Shown here: piece after piece, positions 14,009 through 62,778 of the stretch
Layout: every line of letters starts with the position of its first letter
Numbering within the stretch: the first letter of the stretch is position 1
From: Octopus vulgaris
Lineage: Eukaryota
DNA: 64,000 nucleotides
Assembly (NCBI GenBank): GCA_951406725.2
Contig: OX597817.1
Span: 46,934,001 to 46,998,000, forward strand
Direction: 5' to 3'
Notes under the pieces: generated by a model
What the model saw: the letters and a program-made list of their open reading frames with translations, nothing else
Told to the model about the DNA's origin: nothing
The model's database searches: none
Made by a program: the position numbers and the translations under genes

Positions 14009-14510
14009 AATATACGAAGCCCAGTACACCCATCATGACTACCAGTCTGATAAGGGTACACCAGGCACATGCATCACAACCATGTGTGCGCGACATGGTG
14101 ATCTCATGTCAAGATAAACAGCACATGACCTTGCAGGTGGGGCCCCGTTAGAATTTTCTTCAGATCGAGTAACCCATCCCACTCGAAAGGTCCCTGAATA
14201 AGAGTTGTTTAAGGATGTTGAACGAAACACCCATGTTTCCAGAGGTGAATTTTTCAAACCCCAAAGAATCCCTCTCAACACACGGCTATGATGCTCCCCC
14301 ACTACTTCTGCTCGTGATCAGAGATGCACATATCGTCAGCCACTAAGGGACATGCTCAACTGGTTAAGGCCAAATAACTGACAAGCAAATCTGTGGTATT
14401 GAGCAGAATATTTGCTGTAGGCCATCTTTTATACCAAGACAAAACAACGTACGATAACACTTCCAATCAATTAAGATCAACAGCCATGAGAGCCACTGCC
14501 TGGTACTGGA
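14009..14510 (-). mobile_element. Non-coding repeat family E
   Basis: Reverse complement of 14981-15396; its head also recurs at 15491-15549. Confidence 0.8.
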
Positions 14511-14980: not shown

Positions 14981-15439
14981 TGGACTACAGCAAATATTCT
15001 GCTCAATACCACAGATTTGCTTGTCAGTTATTTGGCCTTAACCAGTTGAGCATGTCCCTTAGTGGCTGACGATATGTGCATCTCTGATCACGAGCAGAAG
15101 TAGTGGGGGAGCATCATAGCCGTGTGTTGAGAGGGATTCTTTGGGGTTTGAATAATTCACCTCTGGAAACATGGGTGTTTCGTTCAACATCCTTAAACAA
15201 CTCTTATTCAGGGACCTTTCGAGTGGGATGGGTTACTCGACCTGAAGAAAATTCTAACGGGGCCCCACCTGCAAGGTCATGTGCTGTTTATCTTGACATG
15301 AGATCACCATGTCGCGCACACATGGTTGTGATGCATGTGCCTGGTGTACCCTTATCAGACGGGTAGTCTTGATGGGTATACTGGGCTTCGTATATTTTAC
15401 CCCAGTGTCACTTTGATGGCATGCACTGCTCTCTCACTC

Positions 15440-29070: not shown

Positions 29071-29592
29071 AAATTTTAATCTGTTCAATAAACGCTTGCA
29101 CTGCTTTGTGCAGGTGGCGTTTGGCTAAATTTTAAAAGTATCGAACAGAGCCTTGCGGTATTTATTTTGGATCCGTGATTTAAGTTCAAATTCTCTTGAG
29201 TTCGCTTTAGCATTTCATACATGTGGGGTCGATAAATAAACTATCAGTCAAAACTTGAGTTAATTTTCTTCTCTCACAATTTTTCAGTTTCTCTCTCTTT
29301 CTCTCTGGAGAAATTAGCTGTGTTTTGACCTGGAGAGAATGGTCTCCGCCAACTTTAAAATGTCTGAGACACACAGTGTGTTGTTATGTCACTCAGACGA
29401 TACACGAATGGAATCTTACATAGAATGAATTACAGTTATTTCTGGAACATTCGATTAAAAATTTATGTTTGAGAGACGCGTGAAAATTATGAATTTCTGG
29501 ATAAAATGTCTGCCAAACGGAAAGTGAGCTTCAGAGAAGATATAATGCAAACGAAAAGCATATATCAATATATGTAACAAACACGCAAACAG

Positions 29593-29649
<57 letters not shown>

Positions 29650-30020
29650 TACACAGACATACACACACATCTCCACTCAAATTATATATAAATAACTGTT
29701 AGTGTATGTGCAGATGTATGTATGTATGTATGTATGTATGTATGTATGCATGTATGTATGTGTATGTGTGTTTGTGATTTTCCTGCTTTTATCTTCTCTC
29801 AATTCACTCACAGTTGAACAAGCAGATTTTTTCCGGAAATTCCTAATTTTCACGTGATCTTCCAATATTAATTATTAAGCGAACATTCCAGAAAGAATTG
29901 CAATTTACTCTGTATAAGAAATGAGCTCTGAAATTTGATGTCAGCTTGATAATTACCACGAACTCAACTTTCGAGCCTTCAGTCATGTTTATAACTTTCT
30001 GCCGATTAAATATACATCTG

Positions 30021-35260: not shown

Positions 35261-35618
35261 TCTTTTCTACTCTAGGCACAAGGCCCGAAATTTTGGGGGA
35301 GGGAATTTATCGACCCCGAAAGGATGAAAGGCAAAGTCAACCGCCGCGGAATTTGAACTCAGAACATAAAATCAGACGAAATACCTATTTCTTTACTACC
35401 CACAAGAGGCTAAACACAGAGAGGACAAACAAGGACAGACACGCGGATTAAGTCGATTATATTGACCCCAGTGCGTAACTGGCACTTATTTAATCGACCT
35501 CGAAATGATGAAAGGCAAAGTCGACCTCGGCGGAATTTGAACTCAGAACGTAACGGCAGACGAAATACCGCTCAGCATTTAGCCCGGCGTGCTAACGCTT
35601 CTGCCAGCTCGCCGGCTT
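35261..35618 (-). mobile_element. SINE family B dimer (second unit has the alternative tail)
   Basis: Junction gacgaaatacc|tatttctttac at ~35385. Confidence 0.85.
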
Positions 35619-36235: not shown

Positions 36236-36657
36236 TAACAGTTATCGCCAAGCTAATATGGCAGTCAATAAATATAAGACTAAAGCTGCCGTTGATTAGC
36301 TCCAAGAGGCCATCGCCTCTAGCTAGCTATATGACACACGAACCTGTGTCCATTATAACCTTCGAACAGGGGAGGTTAGCCGCTTTCCCTTGTTGGTCAG
36401 ACATCTGCTGACATGTTTCGGGGTATTTGCCCTTTATCAATGCAGATATCTGACCAGCAAGGGGAAAGCTGACCTCCCCTGTTCGAAGGTTATAATGGAC
36501 ACAGGTTCGTGTGTCATATAGCTAGCTAGAGGCGATGGCCTCTTGGAGCTAATCAACGGCAGCTTTAGTCTTATATTTATGGACTGCCATATTAGCTTGG
36601 CGATAACTGTTAATTTCCAGTACCGCTGCCATAGTCTCCTTTAGAGAGACTTAGAAA

Positions 36658-36660
<3 letters not shown>
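36236..36660. repeat. Fold-back element: ~172-bp inverted arms around a 33-nt spacer
   Basis: Arms 36236-36408 and 36442-36612 are reverse complements with a few mismatches or indels; (TA)n on both sides. Confidence 0.95.
36404..36446 (-). ncRNA. Minimal HHR with U3-A8 variant core
   Basis: TCTGC A TTGATAA A GGG-caaatac-CCC GAAA CATG TC A GCAGA. Confidence 0.7.
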
Positions 36661-36714
<54 letters not shown>

Positions 36715-36784: not shown

Positions 36785-36986
36785 AATTCTACTTTAGGCA
36801 TTTGGAGGGAGGAGACTAACCGATTACGTCGACGCCGGTGTTTCACTGGTACTTCATTTATCGACCCCGAAAGGATGGAGGGCAAAATCAACATCGGCGG
36901 AATTTTGAACTCAGAACGTAAAGACAGGAGAAAAACCACGAAGCATTTTCGCCGGCGTGCTAGCGATTCAGCCAGCTCGCCGTCTT
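36785..36986 (-). mobile_element. SINE family B
   Basis: Family B head and core on the minus strand. Confidence 0.75.
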
Positions 36987-37514: not shown

Positions 37515-37593
<79 letters not shown>

Positions 37594-37597
<4 letters not shown>

Positions 37598-37869
37598 AAT
37601 TGCAGCGTGGAAGGTGTTTATAAGCCATTTAAGTAACACACAAAAAAAACGTTAGATTCACTTCAACATTTAAATTTTATTTGTCAAAAATATTTTCATC
37701 GCTTTGAAACCGTGACCTGCTCACTGACAAAATTTAGATGTTGAAGGGAATCTAACGTTTTTTGTGTGTTTCTTAAATGGCTTATAAACACCTTCCACGC
37801 TGCAATTGTTTTCGTTCCAGCACACGATCACAGATCAGGTGACTTGCTATGCAAGTATATCTCCGTAAA

Positions 37870-37870
<1 letters not shown>
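37594..37870. repeat. Fold-back element: ~90-bp inverted arms
   Basis: Arms 37594-37686 and 37725-37811; flanked by (TA)n. Confidence 0.9.
37680..37732 (-). ncRNA. Degenerate minimal HHR with G3-C8 variant core
   Basis: TTTGTCA GTGAGCA G GTCAC-ggtttcaaa-GCGAT GAAA ATAT TT t TGACAAA. Confidence 0.55.
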
Positions 37871-37913
<43 letters not shown>

Positions 37914-37914
<1 letters not shown>

Positions 37915-40215
37915 TTCCAGCTTGAACTTCAATAATGCAAACAGGAAACAAATTGAGAAAGAGATCCTCAAACAAAACTGGCCTGAATGTCTCTCCTCGC
38001 CGGACATCGACATGAAACTTCAACAATTCATGTCTGTAATGCAAGCCATATGCTTCAAATGTGTCCCAGAGAGAAAGGCCACTATACACAAGAACAAAAT
38101 CCCCAGAGAGAGGAAAATGCTAATGAGACGGCGCACAAAAATCTCAAATCGCCTAAACAAACAAATTGAAAGCAGTGAAAAGTCCCGCCTGAAAATGAAA
38201 CTGTTGGAAATTGAAAACTGTCTGCAACTCTCCCATGAAAAGGAAGAGCAGACAAAGAAGCCTGGGCTATAGACAACATAAAATCTAACCCCAGAGCTTT
38301 CTACCGGTATGCCAAAGAAACAGCTACGGTGCACTGTAGGATAGGGCCACTCCTTGAAAGGGATGGCACACTTACAGGAAATCCAAAGAGGGTAAGTGAA
38401 ATACTAAATGAGCAATTCAAGAGTGTTTTCACCCCACCCCTAGGGCATTTCCAAATCAGCAATCCAACTGACTTCTTCACCACTGCAGATATGGGGTCAG
38501 AGGCGGCGATGATTGATTACATCAATATAAAGGAAGACGATGTAATAAAGGCTATAGATGAGATGGAAACAAACTCAGCTACTGGCCCCGATGGATTCCA
38601 GCAATCCTTCTAAAAGTATGTAAGAGGGTCCTAGCAAGGCCACTGCGGTCTCTCTTTCAGAGCTTCCTTGCAACTGGCAAACTTCCAAGTAAACTGAAGG
38701 AAGGTAAAATATGCCCTATTCATAAAGGAGGTAGCAGAGCGGAGGCCAAGAACTACAGACCTATCTCCCTAACCTCACACATCAGCAAGGTCATGGAACG
38801 AATAATCACCTTCCTTGAAGAAAATGACTTGCTGCCTGACACCCAACATGGTTTCCAACCAGAAAGAAGCTGCTTAACTCAGCTCCTACAACACTATGAC
38901 TGGGTGCTGAAACAACTGCTCAACCACTCAAATGTGGAAGTCATATATCTCGACTTTGCAAAGGCCTTTGATAAAGTCGATCATGGAATGATATGTCACA
39001 AACTGCGTGATCTTGGCATAGTTGGAAAATTAGGAGAATGGCTTCATGACTTTCTGAAGAATAGAAGTCAGAAGGTAACAGCCAATGGGGCCACTTCCAT
39101 TAACACGCAAATAGTGAGCGGTGTTCCGCAAGGCACTGTTTTGGGACCACTACTGTTCATAATGGCCCTCTCAGACATGCCCTCAGCCACGCAGAGAGCC
39201 ACGATCACAAGTTATGCAGATGATACAAAAGTCTCACAGGCAATACAGAACCATGAAGACACTAAGCACCTGCAATGTGAGCTGGACGAAATATACAAGT
39301 GGGCTGAAAAGAATAGCATGCAGTTCAATGCTGAAAAGTTTCAAGCTTTATACTATCAGCATGCAAAACTGAATGCAATACCCAATGAATACACTGAACC
39401 CGGAGGGATTGCAATCCCAGAGGCACAATAAGTGCGTGACTTGGGTATTCACATGAGTGATGACGCGACCTTTCATGTACATGTTGCTAAACTGGCAATG
39501 AAATGTAGACGGCTGGCTGGATGGATTCTTAGAACCTTTAGAACAAGAGAACAAGAAACCATGATGGTCCTCTGGAAGACACTTGTCCTAAGCCACTTTG
39601 ACTATTGCTCTCAGCTATGGTCACCATCCAGTGTCAAGATGATCACAGAACTTGAGGCGATCCAACGAAGCTACACGAAGAAGATAGCCTCTGTGCAGCA
39701 TATGAGCTACTGGGAAAGTCTCAAGAGATTAAAGCTCTATTCCCTGGAGCGTAGGCGAGAAAGATATGCCATAATATATATCTGGAAGATCCTGGAAGGA
39801 CTTGTCCCAAACTTTGGCATCGAGAGTCACACAAATGCCAGAACCGGGCGCCACTGCGTAGTACCAAGGACTCCAAATTTGCCATCAAGATGTAGGAAAA
39901 GATATTGTGATAGCCTGGGCTTCAGAGGCCCACAGCTCTTCAATATCCTCCCAAAGAACCTGATGGACCTGCATGTTGTAGAGACGGATGTCTTTAAAGT
40001 AGGACTGGATCTCTTCCTGTCAGGTGTCCCGGATGAACCAACTTCACAGCAGGAGGTGCAGATGAGGGCAGCTGCATCGAACTCTCTCATGCATCAGATG
40101 GCGTTTGCTAAAAAGCATCCGTGGGGTAAAATCGTGTAGCAAACCAAATGGCGGTGCCCCAGCATGGCCACAGCTCATTAGCTGAAACTGGAAAAATAAA
40201 ATCAAAATCAAATCA
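37914..40215 (+). mobile_element. 5'-truncated CR1-group LINE with disrupted RT ORF
   Basis: ATGPDG, NYRPISLTS, YLDFAKAFDKVDH, SGVPQGTVLGPLLF, YADDTK, LKLYSLERRRERY. Frameshifts and a stop at 39429-39431; short-repeat tail. Confidence 0.95.
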
Positions 40216-43360: not shown

Positions 43361-43411
<51 letters not shown>

Positions 43412-43412
43412 G

Positions 43413-43640
43413 AAGGCCGGTTTATGGGTGGGATTGCCTGAGGTTTCCCGTCCATAAAGGGTTTAGCTTTATGGCATATCGTCAGATCCCAAAAGCCTGT
43501 TGGCCCATGACCTTTTAAAAATACAGATCCAAGCGATCGTTGGATGACATGGGCCAACAGGTTTTTGGGAGCTGACGATACGCCATAAAGCTAAAACCTT
43601 TATGGACGGGAAACCTCAGGTAATCCCACAAACCGGCCTT
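43413..43640. repeat. Fold-back element: ~95-bp inverted arms, 38-nt spacer
   Basis: Arms 43413-43509 and 43548-43640; follows (TA)n. Confidence 0.9.
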
Positions 43641-43995
43641 TAATATATACATGTATGCATGCATGCATGTAAGTATGTATGTACAATTTTATAAATATAT
43701 GTATGTATGTACAGTCTCATAAATATATATATTCAAAAGAATATATGTGTGCGTTTATGACTTTGTATATATAGATATATACATCCATACATTCATGTAT
43801 GTATGTGTGTACAATCTCATAAATATGTATGTATGAATGCACAGACTCATAAATATATATAAAAAAGAGTATATGTGTGTTTATGACTGTATATATAAAT
43901 ATATACATGCATGCATGCCGCTTTTGTAACACATTTTTAATGAAAAATCAGGATGAAAATAAAGGAGAAAAAAAGCGTGTGTGTGCTCACACTAG

Positions 43996-47429: not shown

Positions 47430-47457
47430 CTGATGAAAGATAAACGTCCGAAACGTC
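47430..47457 (+). ncRNA. Minimal HHR-like motif in a probable PLE terminal repeat
   Basis: CTGATGA A AGA-taaacg-TCC GAAA CG TC. Downstream agcgttaaattaataca also occurs at 35640. Confidence 0.55.
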
Positions 47458-50519: not shown

Positions 50520-53500
50520 ATAGAACTACTAAAACTTAGGGCCTCCACAAATGAGGAAAAATATAAAAGCATCGACGAGTAGATGCACAATGAAATACAA
50601 AAACATACCGAGGGACAACCCCTCGAAAATACACTAAATCATTGGAAGGAAACCTGTGAAAAGGAAGGGAGAAATTCTCTCCTGCGCTGGGAAAAAAGCA
50701 ACGATTTCTTCCAAAGATATGCGTCAATTTTCAAAAATGAATTGGGTACAGATAATCCCTTTCTTAAGAAAATTACAAAAAATAAAAAAGAAAAACCGAA
50801 CAACCCACAAACCACCCCCAACTATCCTCCATACACTAGAAACAGAAATCACCCACAACCAACATTTTCGAACCACGCAAGACTTAACAGGGAACAAGCT
50901 GACAGACAACGCGTCTATGAAATAGATTACACCAAAAACAGAACACACCAACAATATCCTAATACCAGACCCAACCACCACATAACAGCACAAAACAACA
51001 TTAGAATACGAAATACACCACACACAAGTCGCTACTACCCCATGAACCAAAATTACTGGTCCCCACCGAACACAAGACAAACGCAAAAAAACACTAAGTC
51101 AAGCAACATCCCACATACAAGCAATTCGAAACAAAAATATTTCACATACAGAAATTTTACACACACCACAAACGAAAACAACCATAGATTCCCACACACA
51201 CACAACAATTGAAGGCAACAATACCACCGTTCCCCCGAACCAATATCACACAACCTCACAAACTCATACAAACAAAATTACACCCAACATTTTTTAGCCC
51301 GGGACCAGAGACACCAGGACACAGGCTGGAACCTAGTAATAAGGAAAAACCGAAGATAATCAATCTTTCAACCAAACCTCTCTCTAACATAAAAATTGAC
51401 ATCCTCTCAAAAGGGCTCAAATTTACGCCAACTCCACGCAGAGCCAACCTAAATTAAATCAAGGATAATATAACAGAATTTTGCAGAAAATTAAGACTAG
51501 TAGAAGCATCAACCAGTTTCAATACTGAAGATGAATCACTAGTCAAGAACAAAAGTGAACACATCCCCCACAGAGGAAGAAATAAAGATCTTGACGAATT
51601 CTGCAGCCACATTGAGAACTTTCCCTACCATACTATACATAAACAGACAGTTAACTCAAATTTTAACACTACACAATGGAAGGAACTGATAGAACTTCAA
51701 AATGATGAAGATATAACCATTAAGGAAGCAGACAAGGGAAGTGCAGTTGTAAAAATGGATACATCATACTATAGAAATCTTGTAATTTCCTTTGCTTGAT
51801 GACAATCAACATTATGAAAAAATCACCAACTACACCCCGCAAAAAATAATGAAAACTCTATCTTCACTAATTAAAACCCATGAAAAGGAACTAACAACCA
51901 AAGAGATTGACTTTCTAACAAGCTTTAAATGCAAGCCTAGCCTCTTCTATGGTCTGCCAAAAATTCATAAAAGCCAAATTATAAATGAAACCATTAAAAA
52001 ATCACCAAAGACATACATACACACACCTAACCCGGGGGACCTAAAACTACGACCTATTGTAGCTGGCCCAACCTGTGAAACACACAGATTAAGTCCATTT
52101 ATGGACATTCTCCTGAAACCCTTCCTTAAACATATCGATAGCCATATCAGAGATGACTTGGATATGTTAAACCACCTTCCAAAAAAAAGCCAAGGAAGAA
52201 ACAATCATGGTTTCATTTGATGTAGTTAATTTATATACCAGTATACCTCATAATTATGGACTAGAGGCAATACAGTTCTGGCTGGACCAATTTCCGGCAG
52301 AAATACCAAAAAGGATCAGTAAAGAATTCATTACTAAATCGGTTGAATTCATCCTACATAATAACCACTTCATGTTTGACAATACATTTTACCGTCAAAA
52401 ATCCGGAATTGCTATGGGTACAAGGGCAGCACCAGTCATTGCGAACCTAACAATGGGCTACCTGGAAATAATTATTTACCAGGAATCTTTATCAACCTTT
52501 GGAAACCCCCTCTCTCAATACATAAAAGAGAATTGGAAACGATTCCTGGGCGATTGTTTTATACTCTGAAATGAAAACACAGATAAACTCCTAAAATTCA
52601 AAAACCTATTGAACAGCATCAACCCAAATATACAGTTCACAATGGAATACAACCAAAAGGAGCTCCCATTCTTAGATATACTAATTTAAAAAATTAACCT
52701 TAAAATAGAAACAGACATTTTTTACAAAGCCACAGACGCCAAACAATACCTACTTTTTGATTCATGCCACCCAAGACACACTAAAACAAACATCCCTTTC
52801 AACCTTGCAAGAAGGATATACACAATAGTGACAGAACAAAATACCAGGAACTTTAGACTGCAAGAACTCAAAAACACCCTAATTGACAGACACTACCCAG
52901 CTCAACTCATAGAGGATGGGATCAGACGTGCAACAGAAATCGACATAGAAACTTTGAGAAAAGTTCAACACAACAACACACCTTCCCCGAAAATACTGCC
53001 TTACATATCCACTCAAAAAGATTCTCACAAAGGCAAAATTGCTTTCTGAAATTACGGATGCAAAAGTAAAAGAATGTGGTAGACCAAACTGTGCAACATG
53101 CCCAAACCTTCTAGAAGGGTCAGAATTCCTCTTCAAAGAGGGACAAAAATTCAAGATCAAATCTAATTTTACTTGTGCCTCTGAAAACATAATTTATGCC
53201 ATAAGATGCTCGGGCTGCCACCAAAACTACGTGGGGTCCACGGGACTATCACTCAGACGACAACACTGCATCGACAACAGATTGCATTCCCAGAATACAG
53301 AATGATACCCTTTAGTGAGCATATTGAGAAATGCGCAAAGCAACTACTACCACAATTTTAATCTTTCCATTTTATCAATGTGCTATTGGAACACCAACAC
53401 AAATTAGACTAAACAAGGAAACATTCTTCATTGAAATATATAAGCCCAAACTTAACTACTCGAACATTCTTATACAGAGAAACTCATCCCATTAAATTAA

Positions 53501-53780
53501 AAAAAATAATAAAAAGCCAAGAAGTATGAAGCGATTATCTCCCTTACACTGGAAGAAATGACTTATTACCTCCCCTAACCTGGAACTCTTCTTTACACTT
53601 AACGAAATCATAACACAATGTTTTGAGAAATTTGAAAAGTTAAACACGAAATCGGTAATTTCTTCAAAAACTATGTCACTGTATGAAAAAAATTTATAAC
53701 ATTCTTCTGACATAATGACTCAAATATATATTTTTTAACCTTTTAAAACAAGCCTTCTGTAGTTTTTTCACTTTTTACTA
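50520..53780 (+). mobile_element. Penelope-like retroelement, near full length but disrupted (RT plus C-terminal GIY-YIG)
   Basis: LSKGLKFTPTP, KEADKGSAVV, FYGLPKIHK, LRPIVAG, SFDVVNLYTSIP, GIAMGTRAAPVIANLTMG, WKRFLGDCF (DD decayed), CGRPNCATC, NIIYAIRCSGCHQNYVGST. Several stops and frameshifts. Confidence 0.95.
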
Positions 53781-62721: not shown

Positions 62722-62778
62722 GTGGGAACACGGGATGCATTTCGGTGTAATTGGCCTTTATCAATGACGTCTACTCAC
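62722..62778 (-). ncRNA. Minimal HHR with U3-A8 variant core
   Basis: gtgagtagacgtca TTGATAA A GG-ccaattaca-CC GAAA TGCA TC ccgtgttcccac. Confidence 0.6.

Follow-up and report, generated by a model that had tools for sequence, protein, structure and literature searches.

The locus between 37518 and 37912 of the window (the 64-kb stretch of Octopus vulgaris DNA analysed here) contains a long hairpin with a hammerhead-like core in its loop and a (TA)n run on each side. The features of this locus, and of two other elements of the window that are compared with it below, are as follows:

37518..37594, no strand: left (TA)n run, the likely insertion target
37594..37686, minus strand: putative direct pseudo-LTR (pLTR) copy, 93 nt, tail-less, downstream of the predicted cut and ending on (TA)n
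37676..37679, minus strand: 4-nt bulge in the stem I 3' strand, from the predicted fold and the arm alignment
37687..37724, minus strand: type I hammerhead core of 38 nt that forms the hairpin loop, from its anatomy and the family majority letters
37725..37734, minus strand: natural stem I 5' strand, 10 nt, after which (past 37734) family depth falls
37732..37811, plus strand: putative inverted, 5'-truncated pLTR copy, beginning just beyond the stem I bulge
37812..37868, plus strand: one-sided 57-nt extension (the tail); copies of the family stop at 37868, on TA-rich DNA
37876..37912, no strand: right (TA)n run, the likely insertion target
36236..36662, minus strand: hairpin of another family with a U3-A8 core at 36440, a tail of ~50 nt on the inverted copy and (TA)n on both sides
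51200..53780, plus strand: decayed Penelope-like open reading frame (ORF), U3-A8 core and (TA)n of a different family, assigned from motifs, Pfam and inspection by eye

The hairpin arms (37594-37686, 93 nt; 37725-37811, 87 nt) pair in 84 of 87 aligned columns, in agreement with the arms of about 90 bp described in an earlier reading of this DNA made without database searches (the sequence-only reading). Their alignment contains two gaps, one of 2 nt inside a poly-A run and one of 4 nt at 7 bp from the loop. In the predicted fold, stem I consists of 7 bp, a 4-nt bulge and a further 3-4 bp, and this bulge is identical with the 4-nt gap of the arm alignment. The direct copy (37594..37686) opens with the 3' strand of stem I, and in the window copy the segment 37725..37734 doubles as the overlap that joins the inverted copy. 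Nothing in the left arm pairs with the tail (37812-37868). A blastn search of the 64-kb window found no further copy of the element, and three-frame translations of arm and tail revealed no convincing ORF start. The (TA)n context noted earlier is present as the runs at 37518-37594 and 37876-37912.

The hammerhead is encoded on the minus strand, which the sequence-only reading had left unassigned. Its core begins exactly at the start of the loop with G3-U-G-A-G-C8-A9 (G3 at 37724, C8 at 37719) and has a Watson-Crick 3-8 pair and the required GAAA, with G3-C8 in place of the canonical C3-G8. The natural variant of this pair described in the literature is U3-A8 (PMC4209133, PMC3088659). A9 is followed by an extra G at 37717 and by stem II (37716-37712 with 37702-37698), whose five pairs in the window copy include one G.U and one A.C mismatch. 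Loop II has 9 nt, GAAA occupies 37697-37694, and a palindromic helix III and U17 follow, after which the arm resumes past a cut predicted to fall between 37687 and 37686. Compared with the family, the window copy is one base longer in the T run that precedes this site. When the 38-nt loop was shuffled 1,000,000 times by mononucleotides, 40 shuffles had a core in the same register on either strand. Rfam gave no hammerhead match at E-values up to 10 for the loop at 37687-37724 (scored as the decayed window copy) or for the U3-A8 loop at 36440, and the hammerhead call is therefore based on anatomy and family data and not on a model score. A microRNA reading of the hairpin was rejected, as Rfam (run on the window and both loops) returned only simple-repeat and generic hairpin microRNA matches, none at the gathering score.

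The hairpin sequence belongs to a large, high-copy repeat family. Parts of it are present in 20 of 24 listed public sequencing runs (four organism labels), none of which holds half of its words. The family was read, with a likeness cut-off of 80%, from four public runs: X1 and X2 (DNA, contigs) and X23 and X24 (RNA reads). The records aligned to the 277 nt are 14,062 contigs (X1), 5,517 contigs (X2), 1,639 reads (X23) and 1,272 reads (X24), totals which are not copy numbers.

The family majority restores the parts of the ribozyme that are damaged in the window copy. At 37713, T is replaced by C in 84% (X1) and 87% (X2) of depth and in 217 of 352 X23 reads (62%) and 197 of 289 X24 reads (68%). 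At 37698, A is replaced by G in 37% (X1) and 78% (X2) of depth and in 270 of 360 X23 reads (75%) and 223 of 296 X24 reads (75%). The majority stem II is GTCGC/GCGAC in three of the four runs, exactly the pairing that the sequence-only reading had predicted for the family; by depth, G.U predominates as the closing pair in X1. The decay of stem II on both sides, as then proposed, holds for 37713, which clearly breaks pairing, but 37698 leaves a G.U pair that is the common state in X1. A paired stem II closed by G10.1-C11.1 is found in the family majority and not in the window copy, and the predicted pair probability of stem II is 0.0 in the window copy but 0.97 when five family-majority letters are substituted. 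Similarly, GUGAGCA is correct for the core of the window copy, but N7 in the family is A (91-98%) and not G. The loose-end consensus (195, 74, 172 and 124 records) is shorter by one A in the run 37686-37690, so that helix III becomes an exact palindrome of six bases directly before U17; the consensus rows retain the C8 letter, and A15.1-U16.1 and U17 are present both in this majority and in the window copy. U4, G5, A6, A9, GAAA, G10.1-C11.1, the palindrome and stem I are all kept in the family majority, and the hammerhead identification made in the sequence-only reading is supported. G12 is lost in 86 of 359 X23 reads.

No place in X1 or X2 has a C>G change at 5% or more, and the sole G>C place in X1, X2 and X23 is 37841; a canonical C3-G8 core must therefore make up less than 5% of the family in these two DNA runs. 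Two C>G places in X23 and three in X24 carry no coordinate, 40 of the 132 variant rows being listed, so a minority of canonical cores may occur. The G3-C8 core first seen in the loop is thus a feature both of the window anatomy and of the family majority, and the window copy is a decayed member of a G3-C8 family. No ribozyme activity is predicted for the window copy; the family-majority core is predicted to self-cut, as a dimer.

Two positions in stem II differ between RNA and DNA runs. G>A at 37701 (105 of 361 X23 reads) reaches 24-29% in the RNA runs and 3-4% in the DNA runs, and T is retained at 37713 in 32-38% and 13-16%, respectively. If in phase, these letters would form a compensatory A-U pair; both are also CpG-type changes.

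Quite possibly, the G3-C8 core is a dead relic of a drifted master element, its motif retained purely for structure, as stem I or II or as a site of protein binding, or not at all. Precedent comes from the anole Poseidon element (PAc), which inserts in vitro without cleavage; as described for that system, cutting is protein-assisted and dispensable for insertion, and no RNA ends occur at the cut site (PMC11167929). The hammerheads of Penelope-like elements (PLEs) are reported to cut weakly (PMC4209133), and neither X23 nor X24 shows a pile-up of read ends at the predicted cut. This absence says little about cleavage, because the anole ribozyme is active and likewise leaves no RNA ends at its cut site (PMC11167929); the first mates of X23 and X24 are equal on both strands and are uninformative on strand, start and cleavage. 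What argues against a relic is that positions 3 and 8 have changed in matching fashion, with the rest of the core and stem I kept in the majority. Single changes at 3 or 8 are reported to abolish cutting and the double change to restore it in part (PMC11167929, PMC8495972): the C3G/G8C double mutant of PAc partly rescues cutting (PMC11167929), and rescue of C3G is also reported in PMC8495972.

We tentatively suggest a working natural G3-C8/U17 hammerhead in a high-copy retrotransposon family of animals, with stem I serving as a guide that joins two oppositely primed cDNAs. A G3-C8 variant is stated to be more active with G17 than with C17 (PMC3884650, data not shown there). By analogy, the choice of U17 may avoid a G3-C17 trap, in which C17 would be held by G3.

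The hairpin is not the unit of the family. The usual form consists of a 13-nt leader, the stem I strand, the core, the 93-nt arm and an optional 57-nt tail; the window copy carries the inverted arm and tail in place of the leader. Depth drops after 37734 in all four runs (X23, 360 to 106; X24, 286 to 90; X2, 132,808 to 23,498; X1, 103,612 to 63,210), and loose ends at this position (69, 61, 212 and 181 records in X1, X2, X23 and X24) lead into the common 13-nt leader and, past it, into divergent AT-rich DNA. Leader-bearing reads number 212 of ~360 core-spanning RNA reads in X23 and 181 of ~286 in X24 (about 60%), and most members have no second arm at 37734. At the other side, the family ends at 37868 on TA-rich DNA in 62 (X1), 58 (X2), 297 (X23) and 184 (X24) records, and a second 3' end near 37809-37811 runs into TA in one contig. 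RNA reads also pass from 37863 into conserved sequence (144 in X23, 101 in X24), which suggests a longer parent element.

In the window copy, the switch between arms is in register with stem I, which is why the 4-nt bulge of stem I is a difference between the arms. Elsewhere in the family, junctions vary. The listed joints (15 of 60) and inserts (12 of 24) include further head-to-head junctions. Those that keep the core in the loop run from 37734 to 37778, 37782 and 37843; one from 37735 to 37791 has the whole leader in between; and core-less junctions include 37630 to 37786, 37632 to 37773 and 37675 to 37777. Each of these is weak, being found mostly in single contigs at 80% likeness whose shorter side, where stated, spans 22-39 letters. 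The in-register junction accounts for at most about 18% of core-spanning RNA reads, and the contig covering 37715-37857 may be a second in-register copy, its loop side having only 20 letters. Exact microhomology at the window junction is 3 nt; the 10-bp overlap requires that the bulge be looped out. At the arm differences 37737 and 37747, the other arm's letter is found in 94% and 97% of X1 depth (ordinary arms included), and these differences look private to the window copy.

The hairpin most likely represents two short PLE pLTR pieces joined head to head, probably through pairing in stem I of the ribozyme, and inserted into (TA)n. This reading is based on the inverted copy, one-sided tail, (TA)n target and dimer-type hammerhead, which match the published pLTR signature: PLE insertions are described as having a 5'-truncated copy in inverted orientation, a tail of 30-40 bp on one side, pLTR hammerheads, a (TA)n bias and microsatellite targets (PMC8557442). 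The family has inverted 5'-truncated copies with variable junctions (mostly single contigs) and a hammerhead with a palindromic helix III inside the repeat, upstream of its 3' end. Its tail has a family-wide end at 37868 and is 57 nt long, against the published 30-40 bp. The (TA)n context fits the bias of the Neptune clade, a bias described also for Hydra and Naiad PLEs (PMC8557442). Counting against a PLE origin, no ORF linked to the family was found in the window or in the collection scans; metagenome contigs were scanned with two patterns and viral contigs with one, with 0 matches each. The window's own Penelope-like remnant (51200-53780) has no DNA similarity to the family by blastn and was ruled out as its parent on this comparison.

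An alternative is that the family is a non-autonomous unit of about 150-210 nt, SINE-like or resembling non-LTR retrozymes, which is mobilised in trans by a Penelope-like enzyme. We consider this rather unlikely. A sharply fixed 5' end, abundant solo copies and the lack of a visible ORF are what such a unit would show, and animal retrozymes have been argued to be non-autonomous PLE derivatives (bioRxiv 10.64898/2026.07.22.740005). Like the animal non-LTR retrozymes of that account, the family has a small non-coding unit and a type I hammerhead and is likely to be moved by Penelope-like enzymes. However, the 144 and 101 RNA reads that continue past the tail into conserved sequence suggest a longer parent, and the head-to-tail tandem units with one hammerhead each that are described for retrozymes contrast with the head-to-head pair and single core of the window locus. 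The locus holds no tandem array, and no tail-to-leader joint occurs among the 15 of 60 joints listed.

It is very unlikely that the hairpin with its ribozyme loop is itself mobile, either as a non-autonomous element or as a rod-like RNA replicon that is opened in the loop and copied whole. Two unrelated families within 2 kb share the same in-register layout, one contig is possibly a second in-register copy, and up to about 18% of core-spanning RNA reads fit such a unit, but the leader takes the place of the second arm in about 60% of these reads, junctions differ among copies, core-less hairpins occur in the same family, and the arm differences at 37737 and 37747 look private to the window copy, the reads including ordinary arms. 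A MITE or foldback DNA transposon with a chance hammerhead likeness in its spacer can practically be dismissed: long terminal inverted repeats in a TA context, the lack of an Rfam match and two other TA-flanked, core-less hairpins in the window would suit it, but it is largely refuted by the family read data, in which the second arm is missing from most copies (fixed terminal inverted repeats are not found on all of them), the tail is one-sided, junctions vary and the majority restores stem II and the palindrome, and the register of the core is matched by only 40 of 1,000,000 shuffles.

The hairpin at 36236 has no sequence similarity to the one at 37594 (blastn, word size 7), as the sequence-only reading had stated, and it has the same layout. 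The special hairpin-ribozyme element implied by that reading is not supported, most family members having no second arm and other copies joining the arms at different places, some with the ribozyme in the loop and some without it. The layout is likely to recur because PLEs often leave head-to-head inverted end repeats. In the 36236 hairpin, five of the six arm differences lie inside the inner 36 of 175 columns (p = 0.002), which is expected from a natural long stem I combined with a fresh inverted copy; later homogenisation of the outer arms could instead have produced this clustering.

Formation of the hairpin by a PLE could proceed in the following steps. A Penelope-like enzyme would nick (TA)n, and the nicks would prime cDNA synthesis. 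The template RNA would have its 5' end at the fixed end 13 nt before stem I, and reverse transcriptase would start inside it at either of two sites 57 nt apart. One cDNA would pass through the ribozyme up to the stem I 5' strand. The copy of this strand would then, if the bulge is looped out, anneal to the beginning of the arm carried by a second cDNA primed on the opposite target strand, a step that we mildly favour; the same cDNA might instead fold back on itself, the tail later being trimmed from one end, which is also a credible route. Fill-in would leave the core as the loop. Cutting by the ribozyme would not be required for a junction in stem I.

Much of this scheme has parallels in described elements. 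In Pen2a_Av, the inverted pLTR shares a 15-bp overlap with the direct pLTR and falls short of its length by 37 bp (PMC3846280), a difference close to the 37-38-nt core of the window hairpin. Pen2a_Av and the PLE scheme in general share with the window insertion a head-to-head, inverted, 5'-truncated and overlapping copy, a one-sided tail, variable truncation and an AT-rich or (TA)n target; the window insertion differs in having no ORF and a tail of 57 nt rather than 30-40. In the account of PMC3846280, which dates from 2013 and predates the description of PLE hammerheads, palindromes at the junctions are read as self-priming on an antisense template and are not tied to a ribozyme stem. PLE hammerheads are characterized by an extra base after A9, G10.1-C11.1, a palindromic helix III and weak dimer activity (PMC4209133). 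The window family resembles these minimal, dimer-type ribozymes in its open stem I, the extra base between A9 and stem II, G10.1-C11.1, the short palindromic helix III and the prevalence of solo genomic copies (PMC4209133). Unlike the published examples, it has G3-C8 with U17, and its stem I includes a distal helix and, on the 3' side, a bulge of 4 nt.

A further parallel is PAc, in which reverse transcription starts internally at 111-118 nt into the ORF and the ribozyme cut is at 26, with the result that the starts lie 85-92 nt past the cut, compared with 93 nt in the window family; the tail is the stretch between two starts, and both target strands are nicked and extended (PMC11167929). Both systems have a sense hammerhead upstream of the start, a tail between two start sites and a template RNA that extends past the tail. 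In PAc, however, the start sites are close together and G3-C8 was engineered, whereas G3-C8 is the majority state of the window family; PAc was assayed in vitro, and the window family is known from sequence.

Overall, the structure is mostly explained as a known by-product of Penelope-like retrotransposition and does not represent a new element class. Two parts were not found in print. No natural G3-C8 hammerhead family was found in the literature searched, among the best 20 records where more matched, a scope that excludes the Lünse 2017 survey and one supplement of PMC4209133, and the same literature held no report of an inverted junction placed in stem I of a ribozyme. If the family-wide G3-C8 core cuts, it would be a natural case of a swap known from laboratory mutants, and searches fixed on CUGANGA or UUGANAA would miss such families. 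If stem I acts as a guide, this would explain the 'palindromes' long noted at Penelope inverted junctions and would assign the ribozyme fold a function besides cutting. The origin of PLE head-to-head repeats and the role of their ribozymes are described as open questions (PMC8557442, PMC11167929). The stem I register of the junction, marked by the bulge, makes a prediction open to counting in any assembly of good quality and to testing in the in vitro system already available.

The Penelope-like remnant shows the order ORF, core, arm and (TA)n in the host genome. Its ORF (about 51200-53470) has a DKG motif, reverse transcriptase motifs, a CX4CxxC linker and, as judged by eye, the remnant of a GIY-YIG-type endonuclease. 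The Pfam match to RVT_1 has an E-value of 1.3e-4, which is below the curated cut-off, and four other pieces gave no relevant match. Downstream of the ORF come a hammerhead-like U3-A8 core in sense orientation (53632-53657) and then (TA)n. By the linker, this remnant can be classified as Neptune-type (Neptune criterion: CX2-5CxxC).

A broken LINE-type reverse transcriptase (37916-40139, plus strand) lies directly after the right (TA)n run of the hairpin. It has a Pfam RVT_1 match at 38562-39428 (E-value: 2e-30), and no link between this reverse transcriptase fragment (38562-39431) and the hairpin was found. The window contains two further TA-flanked hairpins. The long one at 43409-43645 has a loop with a small stem and a palindrome and no hammerhead core on either strand, and is possibly another inverted pLTR pair or some other structured motif. 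The one at 1494-1597 has 50 bp and a core-less loop of 4-6 nt, with some 80 unpaired nt between the hairpin and the TA that follows it, and fits a pair truncated before the ribozyme. Two hammerhead-like cores lie outside any hairpin: a canonical C3-G8 minimal core with weak stems at 47430-47457 (plus strand), and a U3-A8 core at 62735-62764 (minus strand) that matches the 36440 core in 24 of 27 nt and has different flanks. Other repeats in the window are a SINE-like repeat in three copies (35306-35385, 35490-35618 and 36857-36986), an inverted repeat at 29414-29919, old and 66% identical, that surrounds CA and TA microsatellites, and a 416-nt inverted repeat (14009-14424 and 14981-15396) that is 98.6% identical and has an (AAT)n-rich spacer.
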